NCBI GenBank assembly: GCA_036340075.1
Contig: JAYYZJ010000008.1
Span: 25,836-89,835 of the forward strand
Source: Thermodesulfobacteriota bacterium
Lineage (GTDB): Bacteria > Desulfobacterota_D > UBA1144
DNA: 64,000 nt
Direction of reading: 5' to 3'
Part shown: piece after piece, positions 46,736 through 55,211 of the stretch
Numbering within the stretch: the stretch's first letter is position 1
How the letters are laid out: each line of letters begins with the position of its first letter
Position numbers and translations under genes: made by a program
Notes under the pieces: model-generated
Told to the model about the DNA's origin: nothing
The model's input: the letters and a program-made list of their open reading frames with translations, nothing else
The model's database searches: none

Positions 46736-47806
46736 ATGATGGATCTCAAAGAAAAGATTTTTTCTAATTCCAGAATTGATTCAGATGAGGGTCTAGAAAT
46801 CCTTAAGAAGTTCTCTACATTAGAAATCGGTCAATTTGCAAATTTTGTAAAGCTAAATAGAGGCTTGAATAAGGAAGTGGGATTTGTTGTTGATACTAAT
46901 CCAAATTATACAAATATTTGTGATACCGAATGCAGCTTTTGTGCATTCTGGAGAACAAAGGATTCCAATGATTCATATACTCTTCCAGTAGATAAAATTA
47001 TTGAGATTGTTCGCACTTCGTATCATAATGGAGCTACTACGGTTCTCTTACAAGGAGGCCACAATTCTTCTATTGATTTAGATTATTATTCTGAATTAAT
47101 AAAAAGAGTACTAAAAGAAGTACCGGGGATACATTTACATGCTTTTTCAGCACCAGAAATTCACTCTATTGCAAAATATACAAATAAAACAAGCAAAGAT
47201 ATCTTGAAATTATTTTGGGACTTAGGCCTAAGAACAATGCCCGGGGGTGGGGCGGAAGTTCTTTCTAATAAAGTCAGAAAAAAGATAAGCCCACTTAAAA
47301 TTTCTGCTGATGATTGGATGAGAATAACTAGAGAAGCACATATAGTGGGATTTAAGACAACTGCAACTATGATGTTCGGACATTTAGAAGAGGATGAAGA
47401 TATAGTTGAACATTTAGGAAAAATAAGAGAATTACAAGATGAAACAAATGGATTTCTCTCTTTTATCCCATGGACTTTTAAACCAGAAAATACTTTTATT
47501 GGAAATAAAATTAAATCCGAGATTGGCGGTGATAGGTACTTAAGAGTGTTGGGACTATCAAGAATTTTTCTTGATAACTTTAAGCATATACAAGGTTCAT
47601 GGTTTACTCAGGGTTTTAAAGTGGGTGGTATGTCTTTGCATTATGGAGCCAATGATGTTGGTGGAACCTTGCTTCAGGAAAATGTTTTAAAACTTGCAAA
47701 CAATCCTTACAAGGCAGGGATTAATCAAATTATTCACCTAATTAAATCAGAAGGTTTTCAACCTATTCAGAGAAATACTTTTTACGAGCCAATCAAATCT
47801 TATTAG
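46736..47806 (+). CDS. mqnC: Radical SAM cyclic dehypoxanthinyl futalosine synthase (CofH/MqnC family)
   Basis: DTNPNYTNICDTECSFCAF, LLQGG, MPGGGAE, TTATMMFGH, FIPWTF, HIQGSW, GANDVG. Confidence 0.85.
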   Translation: MMDLKEKIFSNSRIDSDEGLEILKKFSTLEIGQFANFVKLNRGLNKEVGFVVDTNPNYTNICDTECSFCAFWRTKDSNDSYTLPVDKIIEIVRTSYHNGATTVLLQGGHNSSIDLDYYSELIKRVLKEVPGIHLHAFSAPEIHSIAKYTNKTSKDILKLFWDLGLRTMPGGGAEVLSNKVRKKISPLKISADDWMRITREAHIVGFKTTATMMFGHLEEDEDIVEHLGKIRELQDETNGFLSFIPWTFKPENTFIGNKIKSEIGGDRYLRVLGLSRIFLDNFKHIQGSWFTQGFKVGGMSLHYGANDVGGTLLQENVLKLANNPYKAGINQIIHLIKSEGFQPIQRNTFYEPIKSY

Positions 47807-48323
47807 TAAGTATTTCCTCAGAGAATATATTTATTTCTTTTTTATGTAATTCAGGATTTTCTTGCCAATGAATTATAGTTGCAAACATATCCTTTACAAA
47901 TATTTGAATTTCTTCATTATCTGAGTCCCATATCTTATCTACAGAAAATAAAGATATAAATTTCTTTGAGAAATAAGTCTGCTCGAACTGAGTAGATTTA
48001 AGTTCATTTCTTTTAAATCTGACACAACAATAAGAATCGGCACATATAATGCTATATTTCTCATTCAACCCCAGAATCATAGACTTGGCAATTACTAGGC
48101 CTTGGCATATTACATAGAATAAATCTAAATTTATCTTGGAAAAATCGATTTTTTCAAATAAATTATCACTAAGAACAGCTTTTCCCTTGTATATTAAACG
48201 AGGCAAATCCTCATTATGGATTAGTTGGCTAGGAAAATCAGTTATTACCTGACACATAGAAAAACTGGAGCTTACATCTTCCCATATAGCCCTTTTTTTC
48301 TCTTCTAAAGTGAGTTCCGCCAC
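47793..48323 (-). CDS. Hypothetical protein
   Basis: 176-aa ORF with GTG start, filling the gap between mqnC and bioB. Confidence 0.6.
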   Translation of the reverse strand: MAELTLEEKKRAIWEDVSSSFSMCQVITDFPSQLIHNEDLPRLIYKGKAVLSDNLFEKIDFSKINLDLFYVICQGLVIAKSMILGLNEKYSIICADSYCCVRFKRNELKSTQFEQTYFSKKFISLFSVDKIWDSDNEEIQIFVKDMFATIIHWQENPELHKKEINIFSEEILTNKI

Positions 48324-48378: not shown

Positions 48379-48400
48379 GAGTTTTTTGGAAGATATAAAA

Positions 48401-49384
48401 ATGGATTTTACTAAATTAGAAGATAGGCTACTTAACAAAGAAGAAGATATTACCTTCGATGAGGCTTTAGAGCTTACAAATACACCTAATGACAAAATCT
48501 TAGAACTTACATCTCTTGCAAGAAGAGTGACTTTGAAATATAAGGGTGACGGAGTTTTCCTTAGATCAATTATTAGTGCCAAAACAGGAGATTGCTCAGA
48601 AGATTGTTCGTTTTGCTCACAGTCGGTACATTATTCTTCGCCAATTTCTAAGCATCCCTTTTTAGATCCAGACGAGGTCCTTCAAGCAGCGCTCCAATCA
48701 GAAAAAATGGGTGCATTTGATTTTTGTATAGTTATTGCAGTCAAAGGTCCAAACAAAAGACAATTTCAAAAAGTTTTAGAATCTATAGAATTAATTAAGA
48801 AACATACTAAGCTCGAGATAGGTTGTTCTTTAGGTAGTTTAACTAAAGAACAAGCAGATGCTCTGGGTGAAGCAGGAGTATGGAGATATAATCACAATAT
48901 AGAAGCTTGCAAGGAGTACTTCCCTAACATTTGCTCTACTCATACTTATGAAGATAGAGTTAGCACAGCAAAACTTGTGAAAGAGGCTGGGATGGAGCTT
49001 TGTTGCGGCGGAATAATTGGTATGGGAGAAACTGTCAAACAAAGAATACAACTAGCTTTTGAGATTAAAGAACTTGATCCACACACTGTTCCAATTAATT
49101 TTCTTAATCCAAGAAAGGGGACTCCTTTAGGTCATTTGAAGCCTTTGCCCAGTTTGGAAGCTATTAAAACTATTGCGATTTTTAGATTGATAATGCCTAG
49201 TAAAGTTTTAATGTCAGGTGGAGGAAGAGAAATCACATTAAGAGATCTTCAATCTATGGGAATTATGGCTGGATCAAATGGAATGATAATAGGCAATTAT
49301 TTAACTACTGTAGGCCGATCTCCGGAAGAGGATCTTAAAATGATAGAAGACTTAGAAATACCTATTAGGGATAGATACAGCTAA
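48401..49384 (+). CDS. bioB: Biotin synthase
   Basis: KTGDCSEDCSFCSQS, YNHNIE, CCGGIIGMGET, VPINFL, GNYLTT. ATG 48401 preferred over TTG 48386. Confidence 0.96.
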   Translation: MDFTKLEDRLLNKEEDITFDEALELTNTPNDKILELTSLARRVTLKYKGDGVFLRSIISAKTGDCSEDCSFCSQSVHYSSPISKHPFLDPDEVLQAALQSEKMGAFDFCIVIAVKGPNKRQFQKVLESIELIKKHTKLEIGCSLGSLTKEQADALGEAGVWRYNHNIEACKEYFPNICSTHTYEDRVSTAKLVKEAGMELCCGGIIGMGETVKQRIQLAFEIKELDPHTVPINFLNPRKGTPLGHLKPLPSLEAIKTIAIFRLIMPSKVLMSGGGREITLRDLQSMGIMAGSNGMIIGNYLTTVGRSPEEDLKMIEDLEIPIRDRYS

Positions 49385-49398
49385 ATCTAAAATCTATA

Positions 49399-50724
49399 AT
49401 GACCTCAAAATCAAATATTAAATCATATGATCTAGATTATATTTGGCATCCTTTTACCCAAATGAAAGAGTATGCAGAAGAAGAGCCTCTTGTAATTGAG
49501 GATTCTGATGGCGTCTATTTAATTGATTCTGATGGTAAAAAATATATTGATGGTGTTTCTTCTTTGTGGGTGAATATACATGGTCACAAAGTAGAAAAAA
49601 TTGACAATGCTGTTAAAAAACAATTAAATAAGAATTCACATTCTACTCTGTTAGGTATTACAAACCCATCAGCAGCTATTTTAGCAAAAAAACTAATTGA
49701 TATAGCACCTAAAGGGTTGAAAAAAGTCTTTTATTCTGGAGATGGAGCAAGTGCTGTAGAAGTCGCATTAAAGATGGCTTTTCATTATTGGATTCTAAGA
49801 AACAAGCCAGAAAAACAGAAATTTATTTGTCTCAAAGACGGATACCATGGAGACACATTAGGAGCGGTTTCTGTTGGAGGAATTGATATTTTTCATTCAA
49901 CTTATAAGCCTCTTCTCTTTGAGTCCTTACAGATTTCTTCATATGATTCTTCGAATCAAACACTTCTTGAACTAGAAGAGATTCTGGATAAAAAATCTGA
50001 TGAAGTAGCTGCGATTATTCTTGAACCTTATGTTCAAGCTGCAGGTGGAATAAAAGTTGCCAGTCCTGGATATTTAAAGAAAATTAAAATCCTTTGTGAT
50101 AAATACAATATTCTTTTAATTGCAGACGAAGTAGCAACTGCATTTGGAAGGACAGGAGAAATGTTTGCCTGCAATCATGATAGTGTTACACCCGACATAC
50201 TAGTTCTTGGTAAAGGTTTAACCAGTGGTTATTTGCCACTGTCGGCCACAATAACAACACAAGATATTTTTGATGCTTTTCTAGGAGAAGCGGATGAACT
50301 TAAAACTTTCTTCCATGGTCATAGCTACAGTGGAAATCCTCTAGCCTGTGCAACTGGTATTGCTAATTTGGAAATTTTTGAAGAAGAAAAAACTATTTTC
50401 AAAATAAAGAAAACTGTTGAAATTTTAGAGGACGAATTAAAAGAATTTAGGGGGCTTAGTCATGTAAGCGACATAAGAAACAAAGGTCTTATGGCAGGCA
50501 TTGATTTAAAAAAAGATCCAAGCAAGGGTATTTCTTATAAAATAAATGAAAGGATAGGTAAAAAAGTATGTGATTTAGCAAAAGAAGAGGGTGTTTTGAT
50601 TAGACCATTAGGTGACACTATAGTTATAATGCCTCCTGTTTCAATAAAAGAAAAAGAGCTTAAAAAACTTACTAGATCAATATATAAATGTATTAAAATA
50701 GTTACTGAGGATGAAAAAGAATAA
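49399..50724 (+). CDS. bioA: Adenosylmethionine-8-amino-7-oxononanoate aminotransferase
   Basis: IWHPFTQM, GYHGDT, ADEVATAFGRTG, GKGLTSGYLP, FFHGHSY, IRPLG. Confidence 0.96.
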   Translation: MTSKSNIKSYDLDYIWHPFTQMKEYAEEEPLVIEDSDGVYLIDSDGKKYIDGVSSLWVNIHGHKVEKIDNAVKKQLNKNSHSTLLGITNPSAAILAKKLIDIAPKGLKKVFYSGDGASAVEVALKMAFHYWILRNKPEKQKFICLKDGYHGDTLGAVSVGGIDIFHSTYKPLLFESLQISSYDSSNQTLLELEEILDKKSDEVAAIILEPYVQAAGGIKVASPGYLKKIKILCDKYNILLIADEVATAFGRTGEMFACNHDSVTPDILVLGKGLTSGYLPLSATITTQDIFDAFLGEADELKTFFHGHSYSGNPLACATGIANLEIFEEEKTIFKIKKTVEILEDELKEFRGLSHVSDIRNKGLMAGIDLKKDPSKGISYKINERIGKKVCDLAKEEGVLIRPLGDTIVIMPPVSIKEKELKKLTRSIYKCIKIVTEDEKE

Positions 50725-52246
50725 TTTTGAGAAATCGATATCGAAACAACTAAAAGATATTAAGAGAGCAAATTTACATAGGACCTTAATAGAAATTTCT
50801 AGCTCTATGGGTCCAGAAATAAAAATTGCAAATAAGGAATTATACCAATTTGCATCAAACAACTATTTAGGTATAACCATAAATCCCGAGGTTGTAAAAG
50901 CATCTATAGATGGCTTAAAAATTTTTGGTACAGGAACAGGTGGGTCTAGACTTGTTACTGGAACATCATCATTACATAAAGAACTAGAAAAAGAAATAGC
51001 GGCTTTCAAAAAAACTGAAGACGCAATAGTTTTTAGTTCCGGTTATTTGGCAAACATAGGGACAATTTCAAGTCTAATGGGGGAAAATGATGTTATTTTT
51101 AGCGATGAACTTAATCATGCATCACTAATAGATGGCTGTAAAATTTCGAAAGCCAAGACTGTAATTTACAAACATTGCGACATGGAAGACCTGGAAAGAA
51201 AAATTATCTCGTTCTCTAAAGGAATGAATCAAAGAATGATTCTAACAGATAGCGTCTTTAGCATGGATGGAGATATAGCCCCGTTAGATAAAATAATTGA
51301 ATTGTGTAAAAAATATGACTGTATATCAATGATAGACGAGGCTCATGCTACAGGAGTTCTTGGGAAAAATGGTGCTGGTGCTAGTGAGTTTTTTAATATT
51401 GAAGACAAAGTAGATATATGTATGGGTACTCTCTCTAAAGCAATAGGTTCAATTGGAGGATATGTAGCAGGATCCTTTGATTTGATAGACTTTCTAAAAA
51501 ATAAAGCACGATCATTTATATTTGACACATCTCTTCCAGCATCTACTCTTAATGCTTCGATTTCAGCAATAAGAATTATTCGTGAAAACAATTCTATAAG
51601 AGAAAACCTAAGTAACAATATAAAAAACCTGTCGAACTTTTTAGATGAGAATCAGTTTCCTCATTTTAATTCCCAAACGGCTATTGTTCCAATATTAATA
51701 GGTGGAGAAAAAGAAACTCTAAAAGTTTCAGATTCACTCTTGTCTAATGGTGTATTTATTCCAGCTGTAAGACCGCCATCAGTCCCAGCTGGCAAATCAA
51801 GAATCCGAATTACATTAATGGCTTTACATAAGAAAAAGCATATGGACCGACTCTTTGAATCTTTATTCTCCATCAAAAAAATGATAGACAAGACACAAAG
51901 AGGAAGTAAGATTAAAGCAGAAAGAGGAACCAAGCTGCTATCTAAATTAGATAATGATTTTGAGGTATTTTGGAAGTTGCTTGCAGGAAGAAAGATAAAT
52001 AAGAAAAAAGCAAGACTAGAATATTTGAAGATAAATACTAATCTAAGTGCCGAAGATTTGGCTCAAAGATTTAATCAACTTTATAATCAAACTGATGATG
52101 AAAAATATGTCCCCTATCCTGAAAGATGGCTAAAATATGAGAGATGGAATGATGAACTAATCGAGGTCTCTAAAGGAGAAAGAGTTTATCGTGATAAGCA
52201 AGGATATGTAATATCAAAAGAAGATTGGGAAAAGGAGCAGGTCTAG
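50711..52246 (+). CDS. bioF: 8-amino-7-oxononanoate synthase fused to an extra C-terminal domain of about 120 aa
   Basis: FASNNYLG, SRLVTG, DELNHASL, SMDGD, DEAH, GTLSKA, AVRPPSVP. The extra domain follows at about 51880. Confidence 0.93.
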   Translation: MKKNNFEKSISKQLKDIKRANLHRTLIEISSSMGPEIKIANKELYQFASNNYLGITINPEVVKASIDGLKIFGTGTGGSRLVTGTSSLHKELEKEIAAFKKTEDAIVFSSGYLANIGTISSLMGENDVIFSDELNHASLIDGCKISKAKTVIYKHCDMEDLERKIISFSKGMNQRMILTDSVFSMDGDIAPLDKIIELCKKYDCISMIDEAHATGVLGKNGAGASEFFNIEDKVDICMGTLSKAIGSIGGYVAGSFDLIDFLKNKARSFIFDTSLPASTLNASISAIRIIRENNSIRENLSNNIKNLSNFLDENQFPHFNSQTAIVPILIGGEKETLKVSDSLLSNGVFIPAVRPPSVPAGKSRIRITLMALHKKKHMDRLFESLFSIKKMIDKTQRGSKIKAERGTKLLSKLDNDFEVFWKLLAGRKINKKKARLEYLKINTNLSAEDLAQRFNQLYNQTDDEKYVPYPERWLKYERWNDELIEVSKGERVYRDKQGYVISKEDWEKEQV

Positions 52247-52256
52247 CCTAGCTAAA

Positions 52257-53660
52257 ATGAAAAGAGTTATATTTTTACTTCTAGATGGTTCTAGAGTTGA
52301 GGCCATAAACAAATATTTAGATTTAGGTTATTTACCTAATTTAAAGAATCTAATAGAGAATAAAGGGTCTAATCAAAGTGCTATAACGGTATTTCCATCA
52401 ACAACAGGTCCTGCATATGTTCCATTTCTCATGGGTCTATATCCAGGGAATGCAAATCTTCCAGGAATTAGATGGTTTGATAAATATAAATATTCTAAGA
52501 GTAAGTGGAATCGCGATGGACATAGAAGCTATGTAGGCATTGAATCTATATTTCTTAATTCGGATATTAAAAAATCAAAAAAGACAATATTTGAATACAT
52601 TCCTCAATCAAGATCAATATTTAATGAAATAACTAAAGGAATCAACCCAAAGTTCAATATGACAAAGTTAGCGAAGATATATTACAAAATGAAATCACAC
52701 TTCTTTGGTTCAAACGATATCGACTCTTTGGCGATGAGAAAACTACTAGAGGCGATAGATACAGATGCGGAATTTATTTTTTGTTGTTTGCATGGAGTAG
52801 ATTCAAACTCCCATATATATGGGTGCAATCATAATGCTGTAATAGATTCTTATAAAGAGTTTGATTTAAATCTGGGTTTAGTTATTAATAAAATAAAAAA
52901 AAGAAATGAGATGAAAGATACGCTATTGATTATTACTAGTGATCATGGCCATTCTGACACTGCTATTCACATAGATTTAGTAGAGTTTCTTCAATCAAGA
53001 GGACATAAGGTTTTATCTTATCCTATGATATTTAATAAATATTTATCAGATATAGATTGTTCGGTTATGGTTTCAGGCAATTCAATGGCTCATATATACC
53101 TAAGAAGTGAGTCTAATTGGAAAAATAAAACTCATTTTCCGGAATCCGACAAATTGATTAATGACTTGTTAAAAACTGATGGTATTGATTTAGTTCTTAC
53201 TTTAAATGAAAAACAACAAATCCAAGTTAGAAGCAAGAAAGGTTTTGCATTAATAGAAGAAAAAGAAAATCTAATTTACTATAAACCATTGAAAGATGAT
53301 CCGTTTAATTATAAAGAAATGAATGAGATGCTCAGTTTTGAAGAAATTTTAAGAGAGACTCAGAATTCTGATTATCCTGATGCAATTACACAGATTGTTC
53401 AGCTTTTTAAATCACCAAGATGCGGAGATATAGTTATAAGTGCAGAAACGGGTTATGATCTAAGAAAAGATTACGAATATCCTGAACACAAGTCTTCTCA
53501 CGGCTCTCTTAAAAGAGAACATATGGTTGTCCCTCTAATTGTAAACAAAAAAATAAATGATAAGAATATAAGAACCGTTGATTTGTTTCCTACAATTCTA
53601 AATTATCTTGGTAAAGATTTAATAGATGGTATTGATGGAAAAAATCTAAATATTGATTAA
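52257..53660 (+). CDS. Alkaline phosphatase superfamily, nucleotide pyrophosphatase/phosphodiesterase-like
   Basis: LLDG, VFPSTT (nucleophile Thr), DSNSH, TSDHGH, HGSL, RTVDLFPT. No signal peptide. Confidence 0.88.
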   Translation: MKRVIFLLLDGSRVEAINKYLDLGYLPNLKNLIENKGSNQSAITVFPSTTGPAYVPFLMGLYPGNANLPGIRWFDKYKYSKSKWNRDGHRSYVGIESIFLNSDIKKSKKTIFEYIPQSRSIFNEITKGINPKFNMTKLAKIYYKMKSHFFGSNDIDSLAMRKLLEAIDTDAEFIFCCLHGVDSNSHIYGCNHNAVIDSYKEFDLNLGLVINKIKKRNEMKDTLLIITSDHGHSDTAIHIDLVEFLQSRGHKVLSYPMIFNKYLSDIDCSVMVSGNSMAHIYLRSESNWKNKTHFPESDKLINDLLKTDGIDLVLTLNEKQQIQVRSKKGFALIEEKENLIYYKPLKDDPFNYKEMNEMLSFEEILRETQNSDYPDAITQIVQLFKSPRCGDIVISAETGYDLRKDYEYPEHKSSHGSLKREHMVVPLIVNKKINDKNIRTVDLFPTILNYLGKDLIDGIDGKNLNID

Positions 53661-54152
53661 ATCTTTTTTATTTAGAAGTTTCCTGAGATCCTTTTCTGTT
53701 TCTTCTTCCTTAGTCTTTTCAGTTGCACTAATTTCTTTAACTAATCTTGTAAAAGCATTTTCAAGTATTTTTTGTTCACCAAAAGACAACTCTTTTGTTT
53801 TCGAAATATCATTAATTTCTCTAAAAACTTCACCAGCTTTAATTATATTCCCTGTCTTTAATTTTTCCGTATATGTCCTATATCTTTTATTCCAACTAAC
53901 ATTGTCCTCGATTTTATACCTACTTTTCCCCTTAATTAAGAGCCATAATTCTTTTAGCTCGCTTTTTTTTGCAATAGGCCTTAAGCCCCTCGCATTCACT
54001 GAACTCTGGGGAATCATAACAGTTACGTCGCTATCTACCACTTTAAGGATTAGGAATTTATGCGAAACATTAGCAATATTTTTTTCTTCAATTGAGGCTA
54101 CCGTTACAAGGCCATGGGATGGGTAGACGGCTTTATCACCGACTTTATACAT
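53646..54152 (-). CDS. carD: CarD/CdnL RNA polymerase-binding transcription factor
   Basis: YKVGDKAVYPSHG, GLRP, WNKRYR, LSFGE. Confidence 0.93.
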   Translation of the reverse strand: MYKVGDKAVYPSHGLVTVASIEEKNIANVSHKFLILKVVDSDVTVMIPQSSVNARGLRPIAKKSELKELWLLIKGKSRYKIEDNVSWNKRYRTYTEKLKTGNIIKAGEVFREINDISKTKELSFGEQKILENAFTRLVKEISATEKTKEEETEKDLRKLLNKKDLINI

Positions 54153-54245
54153 AAATTTATTATCTCACATTTCATATTCTACCGCAATTTGTATTTAATA
54201 CTTTTTTGATTGACTAAATAAATAATAATGATTTATATTCAACAT

Positions 54246-55211
54246 ATGGATGTTAACAATTTGTTGAGAACTTTTGAAAGACACTTAAGAGGAGAGAACT
54301 TGTCTGAAAACACAGTAGTTACTTACTTGGGCGATATACTTTTTTACTTTTCAGAACAAAACTGTGTCAAAGAAAATGTGGATCCAAAAAAATTTTCCAA
54401 AGCTATAAGCAAAGAAACCATTACAAACTACTTTCAAAATATTATTTTTTCAGACAAGTATAAGAATAATCTTAAGCTTAAAGGCAAACTAAGAAGAACT
54501 GCGTCAAAAAAAATTTCCGCATTTTCTAAATTTTTTACATATTTGGAAAGGGAAGGGATATTAGACAAAAATTATTTAAAAGGAATAGATCGTACTGAAT
54601 TAATAGGAAAGCATGAAAAAAGCATTGAACACAAGAACTATATAGATCAAAAAAAGCTTTATCTCTTTGTTGAAGAGCTAGAGAAGCTTTATAAAGGTAG
54701 CAAAGATAATTATCTTCAATTAAGAGATGTTTCTATACTTTTTGTTCTTATTTTTTCAGGATTAAGAGCATCGGAAGTTGCAAATATAAGTATTGGAAAT
54801 ATAGATTTAGATAACAATATAATTAAAAACGTTACAAGAAAAAGAGGAGAAAAGGTTGAAATTCCTATTGAGTCTCATTATCTTAAACCAGCAATGACTG
54901 ATTATGTTAATCTGAGAAAAAGAAAACCTTTCGATCATAACCAGTTATTTACTAATAATAGAGGAGGGAGAATTTCAAGACACCTAATTTATAAAATAGT
55001 AGAGAAATATTCATTAAAATCACTTGGCTATAGAGTCCACCCTCATACTTTTAGACACACATTTGCTACATGTTTATTGTTGAACGGCGCTACAACAGCT
55101 GAGGTAAAAACTATGCTTGATCATAAAAATATTGCTTCTACTGAAGTATATGAGCATGTAAATGAAATAAAAACTAAGTATAATCTTATAAATAATTTTT
55201 ATAAAAAATAG
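54246..55211 (+). CDS. xerC: Tyrosine recombinase, XerC-like
   Basis: LSENTV..Y, GLRASE, HPHTFRHTFAT, LDH..IASTEVY. Directly upstream of argB. The TTGACT promoter at 54210 favours ATG 54246. Confidence 0.75.
   Translation: MDVNNLLRTFERHLRGENLSENTVVTYLGDILFYFSEQNCVKENVDPKKFSKAISKETITNYFQNIIFSDKYKNNLKLKGKLRRTASKKISAFSKFFTYLEREGILDKNYLKGIDRTELIGKHEKSIEHKNYIDQKKLYLFVEELEKLYKGSKDNYLQLRDVSILFVLIFSGLRASEVANISIGNIDLDNNIIKNVTRKRGEKVEIPIESHYLKPAMTDYVNLRKRKPFDHNQLFTNNRGGRISRHLIYKIVEKYSLKSLGYRVHPHTFRHTFATCLLLNGATTAEVKTMLDHKNIASTEVYEHVNEIKTKYNLINNFYKK

Follow-up and report, generated by a model that had tools for sequence, protein, structure and literature searches.

A phage initiator-like domain encoded behind bioF in a family of streamlined marine bacteria, and its in-frame fusion to BioF in two genera

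Why should an enzyme of biotin synthesis end in a domain that resembles part of a phage replication protein? The question is raised by a stretch of 64,000 nucleotides (the window) from a Thermodesulfobacteriota bacterium (GenBank assembly GCA_036340075.1, contig JAYYZJ010000008.1, positions 25,836 to 89,835 of the forward strand). In this window bioF, the gene for 8-amino-7-oxononanoate synthase (AONS), runs on into such a domain within a single unbroken open reading frame (ORF; 50711-52246, + strand, 511 aa). We observed that the domain is present throughout the family to which this bacterium belongs, in most genomes as a small gene of its own directly behind bioF, and that the fused form is confined to two genera. 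The parts of the fused ORF, in window coordinates, are the following.

50711..51880, + strand: BioF (8-amino-7-oxononanoate synthase) domain, residues 1-390 of the 511-aa ORF (TIGR00858, PF00155)
51881..51955, + strand: basic linker, residues 391-415, pI 10.2 (junction DNA alignment; low model confidence)
51956..52246, + strand: domain like the C-terminal domain of phage replication initiators, residues 416-511 and the stop codon (phrog_270; ortholog of a separate 100-103-aa gene)

The fused ORF and the relatives of its tail

Judged by its sequence, the N-terminal part of 390 residues is an ordinary BioF. The bioF equivalog model TIGR00858 matched residues 23-385 with 458.2 bits (cut-off 426.45) and the Pfam family PF00155 matched residues 45-385, while the TLSKA (K243), DEAHA and SMDGD motifs were invariant among the four fused proteins aligned. 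We take the TLSKA lysine to be the one that binds pyridoxal phosphate (PLP), and the three motifs to be the catalytic motifs of class-II aminotransferases. An initial annotation of the window, made from the letters alone, had described a complete AONS domain with an extension of about 120 aa, and this description is accurate: the frame runs on for 121 residues from M391 (51881). The FEVFW motif begins at 51959 and RWNDE finishes at 52156, exactly where they had been placed.

The fusion is not an assembly error. As these genomes were assembled from metagenomes, we checked for a sequencing or assembly frameshift that could have joined two genes in the window's genome alone. Nothing was found in favour of such an artefact, the probability of which we regard as negligible. 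The same open frame of 513-514 codons, with the in-frame junction, is kept in five genomes of two genera in spite of diverged sequence (tails 55-86% identical), and four clusters of 511-aa proteins (at 90% identity) have 9, 23, 35 and 10 members. Three DNA runs from three studies each yielded one contig across 50701-53700 with 10-11 substitutions and no indel. The sole change near the junction in these contigs, 51887 G>T (D393Y), does not create a stop.

The tail matched the phage family phrog_270, 'replication initiation protein', with an E-value of 4.7e-7 (tail residues 22-105 on profile positions 174-262 of 383), and more weakly phrog_9327, 'primosomal protein' (4.2e-5), and phrog_9474 (5.2e-5). 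No Pfam or NCBIfam family was found for it, nor a Pfam match over this domain in any of 37 members of the domain family. A phmmer search with the tail against 1.84 billion representative proteins gave 500 matches at E<=1e-3, 14 of them at <=1e-10 and 2 at <=1e-30. The best matches from outside the bacterial family (P0007-P0014) are 49-54% identical to the tail and 121-279 aa long, have the domain at their C-terminus, and even carry the tail's terminal YRDxxGxIIS-EE motif. A Pfam scan of 30 phmmer matches showed an N-terminal helix-turn-helix (HTH) domain, HTH_36 (PF13730), in 16, and DUF1376, Lin1244_N, or weak RepL- or PaaX-like matches in others; a Pfam family over the tail domain itself was found in 0/30. 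In the 37-sequence alignment, the columns of the signature F..FW / K..K / P.P..WL..ERW.DE show a conservation of 90% or more.

According to the cluster records, the closest relatives come from ocean metagenomes and viromes. Their clusters occur on many ocean contigs, and one member bears the name of a 'Prokaryotic dsDNA virus' protein. A relative of P0013 is encoded on a 38-kb IMG/VR contig (locus L026), where it matches phrog_270 at 1.8e-31 over residues 2-247 and adjoins HNH, ParB-like and terminase genes. The domain is also present in gp14 of the Pelagibacter phage HTVC112P, in a similar early region. In neither of these two phages does a helicase or loader gene of the phage's own stand beside the initiator. 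Among the 30 scanned and the top phmmer matches no homologue has a biotin context; these homologues are phage initiators.

No HTH was found in the tail by Pfam, and HTH_36 scored above its cut-off nowhere in the window's genome. By these comparisons the tail corresponds to the C-terminal domain of initiators of phage replication, minus their DNA-binding N-terminus. It is not itself an initiator, since it has neither an HTH nor a phage replication context. The initial annotation had also proposed autoregulation, to be looked for at the bioB promoter; we found no support for this, because the HTH_36 N-terminus is absent and the part retained is not the DNA-binding part of the initiators.

Three other matches were examined and set aside. 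A second tail-like match in the window's genome was spurious and corresponds to PurQ, so that the tail is single-copy there. The tail including its linker (51881-52243) matched DruH of Druantia III at E 4.6e-4 (profile positions 902-985 of 1100), which is probably noise because it was repeated in only 2/37 members of the domain family. A match to the BREX-6 PglZ profile (E 0.12, positions 814-889 of 958) was likewise treated as noise.

An AlphaFold2 (AF2) model of the tail, built on the 37-sequence alignment, had a mean predicted local distance difference test score (pLDDT) of 85 and a predicted template-modelling score (pTM) of 0.77, and its predicted fold consists of four helices, a short hairpin and a last helix. 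Among solved structures, neither a profile search of PDB sequences (nothing below E 1) nor Foldseek against the PDB gave a match. With VIA-align wide the best Z was 4.0, on AAA+ lid-like helical bundles, which is not convincing; the Geobacillus primosomal protein DnaB was at noise level (Z 2.7). Fold matches in the library of viral models (BFVD) are phage proteins with a top E-value of 2.8e-7, weaker ones being named replisome organizer, HTH-domain, RepA-like and DUF1376. The nearest ESM Atlas clusters are viral, ~92 aa, at 0.96, and the nearest named cluster there is Phg_2220_C (lambda O), at 0.93. The BFVD folds, together with phrog_270 and the phmmer matches, bear out the likeness to C-terminal domains of phage replication proteins that the initial annotation had pointed out. 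When the whole fusion was modelled with AF2 on a 30-row alignment, the result was of low quality, the BioF part included (mean pLDDT 68.8, pTM 0.49), with linker residues 398-411 below pLDDT 50, and is uninformative on docking of the tail.

Split and fused forms of the small gene

We compared 19 genomes of the family (~0.8-1.1 Mb each, 77-94% complete) with 22 genomes that represent four further families of its class (41 in total). The domain was present in 19/19 family genomes, one copy each, and in 0/22 of the others. Its place is constant: in all 19 it stands directly after bioF and 10-35 nt before a gene for a 467-aa protein of the type I phosphodiesterase (PDE) family. The PDE gene is present in 41/41 genomes of the class, and lies directly downstream of the domain in each family genome. 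A mobile module made up of the small gene and the PDE gene was considered and rejected, as the latter is a core gene.

In 14 genomes (genera g2, g4, g5 and g6) the domain is encoded by a separate ORF of 100-103 aa, with a spacer of ~46-66 nt and stops in all three frames between the bioF stop and the small-gene ATG. It is fused in-frame to bioF in five, namely G000 (the window's genome) and G001 of genus g1 and G003, G008 and G012 of g3. Conservation of the fusion in relatives therefore holds for the five genomes of these two genera and fails for the other 14, where a stop precedes the ATG of the small gene, the condition that the initial annotation had named as refuting its proposal. In a maximum-likelihood (ML) tree of BioF with five outgroups, the five fused genomes form one clade (support 100/99), which is nested with the split genera g2 and g6 (90/94), while g4 and g5 lie outside this wider group. 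The stretch between the bioF end and the FxxFW codons measures 138 nt in the fused genomes versus 143-151 nt in the split ones, and the linker is nearly as long as the stop, spacer and start of the split genomes together.

The spacer of the split genomes carries a motif, TAGTAAA, N14-17, GGTAAA(A/C)T, situated ~20-28 nt before the ATG and found across g2, g4 and g5. TAGTAAA was present in 11/13 and GGTAAA in 12/13 of the aligned split genomes (L008:1440-1500, with homologous spacers in L007, L009-L013 and L015-L020), and the motif is conserved across genera with saturated synonymous sites. It looks promoter-like by sequence and was not called by a sigma-70 scan; in DNA as AT-rich as this, scans for sigma-70 promoters and terminators carry no information (30 sites vs 27 expected). 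No Rfam family was found in the spacers.

The topology of the BioF tree, the junction lengths and the conserved spacer motif of the split genomes together indicate that the split layout is the ancestral state. The fusion arose a single time, before the window's genus and its sister genus diverged, and the same event made the stop, spacer and start into the 25-aa basic linker. Separate translation of the tail in the fused genomes is unlikely, since the window has no in-frame ATG, GTG or TTG between M391 and FEVFW and M391 is not conserved in G001.

Purifying selection on the tail is as strong as that on BioF. We applied the Nei-Gojobori method to 15 chosen genome pairs, in which the synonymous distance (dS) was unsaturated in 10 for the tail and in 11 for BioF, and obtained omega (dN/dS) values of 0.04-0.16 for the tail, compared with 0.05-0.17 for BioF. 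The tails of the fused clade had values of 0.041, 0.105, 0.136 and 0.136. At the protein level, comparison of all 171 pairs gave a mean identity of 0.64 (tail) and 0.69 (BioF). The ORF is intact in all 19 genomes, which span six genera, with the signature residues F, FW, K, P, WL, RW and DE conserved. In a quick tree of tails, computed without G014 and with P0008, P0010 and P0012 as the sole representatives of the closest phage group, the family tails group with these three phage-type proteins (SH-aLRT 98); the internal order mirrors that of the BioF tree, and the terminal branches of the host sequences are much shorter than the phage ones. The small gene thus encodes a functional protein and is inherited vertically, before and after the fusion.

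Thus, the proposal of a domesticated phage domain stands in view of the omega values and the absence of a prophage, whereas its second half, a module gained to serve BioF, does not, the domain being encoded by an independent gene family-wide.

The bio locus and the place of priA

The remaining genes of the locus are listed below, again in window coordinates.

48386..49384, + strand: bioB (biotin synthase), first of the bioB-bioA-bioF run (Pfam Radical_SAM and BATS; ORF list)
49399..50724, + strand: bioA, class III aminotransferase (PF00202, E 3e-105), overlapping the start of bioF by 14 nt
52257..53660, + strand: gene of the type I phosphodiesterase / nucleotide pyrophosphatase family (PF01663, E 8.2e-33), 10 nt past the stop of the fusion
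53646..54152, - strand: carD-like gene, convergent (Pfam CarD_C and CarD_TRCF_RID), as in the outgroup locus L047

The bioB-bioA-bioF run is contiguous, and bioD and birA are elsewhere in the genome. The operon, described earlier as intact, is so for these three genes and not for bioD, which lies ~50 kb away (window ~857-1360, + strand; G000:C8:26692-27195). The open frame of BirA has 264 aa only (G000:C3:13520-14236, - strand) and is too short for an N-terminal repressor domain. The bioA-bioF adjacency is present in 4/5 outgroup genomes, where bioF is the end of the operon with no comparable gene behind it. As the initial annotation had stated, no phage genes are nearby: Pfam annotation of the window neighbours gave bio genes, the core phosphodiesterase gene and carD, and no prophage genes were seen around the fusion. 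In the one RNA run that gave any signal, coverage was confined to 52352-52665, within the PDE gene.

Two ORFs flanking this region were recorded in passing. A tyrosine recombinase of 327 aa is encoded 2 kb downstream of the fusion (window 54228-55211, + strand); its matches to the XerA, XerC and XerD models (E 1e-37 to 1e-39) are far under the equivalog cut-offs, and it may be either the chromosomal dimer resolvase or an integrase remnant. Between a CofH/MqnC-like radical-SAM gene and bioB there is an ORF of 176 aa (window 47793-48323, - strand) without a Pfam, NCBIfam or PADLOC family.

The primosomal helicase PriA (TIGR00595) was found above cut-off in 22/22 non-family genomes (E 1e-176 to 1e-188) and in 0/19 family genomes. 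An outgroup PriA used as query against the 19 family genomes gave generic helicase-core matches in other helicases only. In each of the 22 non-family genomes, the PriA match precedes the PDE match on one contig and strand, and 2.8-3.5 kb separate its end from the latter. The order in the outgroup G026 is priA-glnE-PDE with carD convergent (L047), and the unannotated ORFs of G033 have the same layout; in the family the order is bioF-small gene-PDE, again with carD convergent. Thus, in comparison with the outgroups examined, the small gene occupies the place of priA-glnE. The glnE gene was not found in the window's genome, the sole family genome checked for it.

Other replication accessory factors were also searched for. 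A homologue of DnaC/I-like helicase loaders is present in 38/41 genomes of the class, the window's genome included, where a DnaC/DnaI-like AAA+ loader of 262 aa with a Cys-rich N-terminus is encoded at G000:C1:15423-16208 (- strand; locus L033 1492-2280) among neighbours that look like housekeeping genes by eye, without a family-library scan. Being class-wide, the loader is older than the small gene. DciA was found in 0/41 genomes of the class, and PriC and DnaD-type (DnaB_2) domains were not found in the window's genome.

Some peculiarities of the outgroup loci are noted here. In G026 and G033 the glnE and PDE genes overlap by 4 nt, and in G037 (C1:1040680-1042068) the PDE match lies inside an open frame of 1313 aa, which suggests an in-frame glnE-PDE fusion. 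Directly upstream of priA in G026 is an ORF similar to TnpB and Cas12f (OrfB_IS605 and TNB domains; L047:799-2190, + strand).

Explanations and known systems

As the best overall explanation, we consider it probable that the tail is a domesticated phage-initiator module that was fused to BioF secondarily by genome compaction. A gene of ~100 aa, derived from the C-terminal domain of an HTH_36-type (phrog_270) initiator and without the DNA-binding N-terminus of the latter, became resident before this family of streamlined marine bacteria, with genomes of ~1 Mb, diversified. In the later ancestor of the two genera, conversion of the bioF stop, the spacer and the small-gene start into the linker gave the 511-aa BioF-tail protein. 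The fusion is most likely a tolerated by-product of compaction and probably not a new regulatory device for biotin synthesis; the tail is tied to biotin by position alone. In fused form the protein again has the arrangement of its ancestors, with an oligomeric N-terminal body joined to the tail by a flexible basic linker.

The N-terminal HTH of phage initiators would bind the origin, and recruitment of the replication machinery is the role expected of their C-terminal module. As the phages examined encode no helicase or loader beside the initiator, and in view of the lambda O-P and plasmid Rep-DnaB interactions, the partner should be a host protein. We put forward, tentatively and with less than even confidence, that the resident domain keeps this ancestral recruiting role: it would putatively bind the host replicative helicase, the DnaC/I-type loader, or single-stranded DNA or its binding protein SSB, and may aid helicase (re)loading without PriA. 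The 'link to replication' of the initial annotation is thus possible through the ancestry of the domain and the loss of priA, and not through BioF. A far-reaching version of this proposal is decidedly doubtful. According to it, the ~100-aa module would be a minimal PriA-independent adaptor for helicase (re)loading, analogous to PriC or DopC, which came from a phage initiator and took over from priA in situ family-wide; in the two genera it would work while tethered to dimeric BioF, joining replication (re)start and the supply of biotin and fatty-acid precursors in one polypeptide and under one expression signal.

Several observations weigh against these proposals. The pattern of PriA and the small gene is a lead, not a correlation: it has little statistical weight, because it arose only once on the phylogeny, in a lineage whose genome shrank by about half. 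As glnE, too, was not found in the one family genome checked for it, the small gene may simply mark the scar of a deletion or rearrangement. Co-domestication of the small gene with the DnaC/I-like loader had to be rejected, the loader being class-wide. The tail model has no detectable likeness in fold or sequence to DnaT, PriC, DnaD or any solved structure. Finally, the small gene is always next to bioF and the fusion has outlasted the separation of two genera, as the Rosetta-stone principle would lead one to expect of a functional link to BioF.

Such a link would exist if the small protein were a partner of BioF, for instance a regulatory or scaffolding subunit or a sensor of AONS, with the fusion making the complex permanent. 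Besides the adjacency in 19/19 genomes and the fusion in five, the omega values of 0.04-0.14 within the fused clade, after the fusion, speak for it. The short BirA has no room for a repressor domain, so another biotin regulator would be needed, and regulatory C-terminal extensions of the kind seen in 5-aminolevulinate synthase (ALAS) offer a precedent. However, the homologues are phage initiators, none of them in a biotin context, and the HTH is lost; the 14 split genomes, with their promoter-like spacer motif and a small gene 10-35 nt from the PDE gene, point to a transcription unit of its own; bioF of the outgroups ends its operon without a comparable follower; and the full-length AF2 model, poor overall, has no confident arrangement between the domains. 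We therefore regard a functional coupling to BioF as unlikely. The tail might instead be an anti-phage decoy, a resident copy that mimics the partner-binding domain of initiators, competes for the host factor and so blocks phage replication. Brezellec et al. 2017 (PMC5509034) suggested a benefit of this kind for phage replication genes that became domesticated. The nearest relatives, at ~50% identity, are proteins of marine viruses that have the subgroup-specific C-terminal hairpin motif in common with the tail, and the phages examined, having no adjacent helicase or loader, must recruit a host factor. Nevertheless, the uniformly low omega and the host-like topology give no sign of an arms race. 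PADLOC gave inconsistent results, with the weak DruH match in 2/37 sequences of the domain family and none for the PDE neighbour. In the fused genomes the dose would be tied to bioF, a weakly expressed gene, and a host link between these phages and the family would be hypothetical. Such a decoy thus appears improbable.

It may also be asked whether the small gene does anything at all. It stands at a rearrangement breakpoint with loss of priA-glnE and directly upstream of a core gene, so that a decaying scrap of prophage could have been kept for the expression signals of the PDE gene, and the fusion would then be read-through of junk. This is very unlikely. The ORF is intact in every family genome of the six genera with synonymous sites at or near saturation, its omega of 0.04-0.16 is at the level of BioF, and genomes of ~1 Mb carry very little non-functional DNA.

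If the tail is a tolerated passenger on BioF, the locus is a clean and datable case of a phage gene fragment fixed as a cellular gene under extreme streamlining, and of an intergenic spacer turned into an interdomain linker. It would also mean that adjacency and fusion need not imply a shared function, which calls for caution in Rosetta-stone inference. If the role in helicase loading is true, the small protein would be a new and very small accessory factor beside DnaC/I, DciA, DopE and PriA/PriB/PriC/DnaT. It would explain how a free-living lineage manages without PriA, and would give a function to a C-terminal domain that hundreds of clusters of phage initiators have in common and that is absent from the Pfam copy searched and from our PDB searches. 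The weight of the finding lies in the family-wide domestication and the PriA lead, more than in the fusion itself.

With canonical BioF and other alpha-oxoamine synthases, the N-terminal 390 residues of the fusion have the above-cut-off score and the catalytic motifs in common. Regulatory C-terminal extensions occur in eukaryotic ALAS and other alpha-oxoamine synthases. The tail described here is folded (as predicted), independently encoded and phage-derived, and is not a regulatory tail of the intrinsically disordered kind. Full-text literature searches returned no report of such a BioF fusion or of a C-terminal extension of BioF, in agreement with the initial annotation, which knew of no described example. 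Among the papers listed for C-terminal domains of replisome organizers, none dealt with this domain, judging by the listing.

The closest likeness is to the phrog_270 / HTH_36 initiators, or 'replisome organizers', such as the P0013-type protein on L026 and HTVC112P gp14. They have the C-terminal domain and its signature in common with the tail, and their layout of N-terminal body, basic low-complexity linker and C-terminal domain is repeated in the fused protein. The tail gene differs from them in being chromosomal, single-copy and vertically inherited, without phage neighbours and without an HTH, and the N-terminal body of the fusion is a PLP enzyme.

PriC and DnaT of E. coli and DnaD/DnaB of Bacillus link the helicase and its loader to a fork or origin and have no helicase activity of the PriA type. 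They are candidates for a 'works-like' comparison only: they are small and largely helical, as is the predicted fold of the tail, and the tail weakly matches the 'primosomal protein' family phrog_9327, but no similarity between them and the tail in sequence or fold was detected.

The nearest precedent for the evolutionary route is DopC/DopE, lambda O/P genes that were domesticated in Cellvibrionales and Oceanospirillales (Brezellec et al. 2017, PMC5509034). DopC is a derivative of HTH_36 initiators that has kept the HTH and has a DnaT_C-like C-terminus, and DopCE is found where DciA and DnaC/I are both missing (PMC5509034). Like DopC/DopE (PMC5509034), the small gene is a resident phage replication gene with no prophage context, with short branches and a host-like phylogeny, and the DopC/DopE lineages and the family of the small gene each are without an ancestral replication accessory factor. 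The host of the small gene, however, has a DnaC/I-like loader, and the missing factor is PriA. Moreover, whereas DopC retains its HTH, the small gene keeps a different C-terminal domain only, with no HTH and no adjacent lambda-P-like gene.

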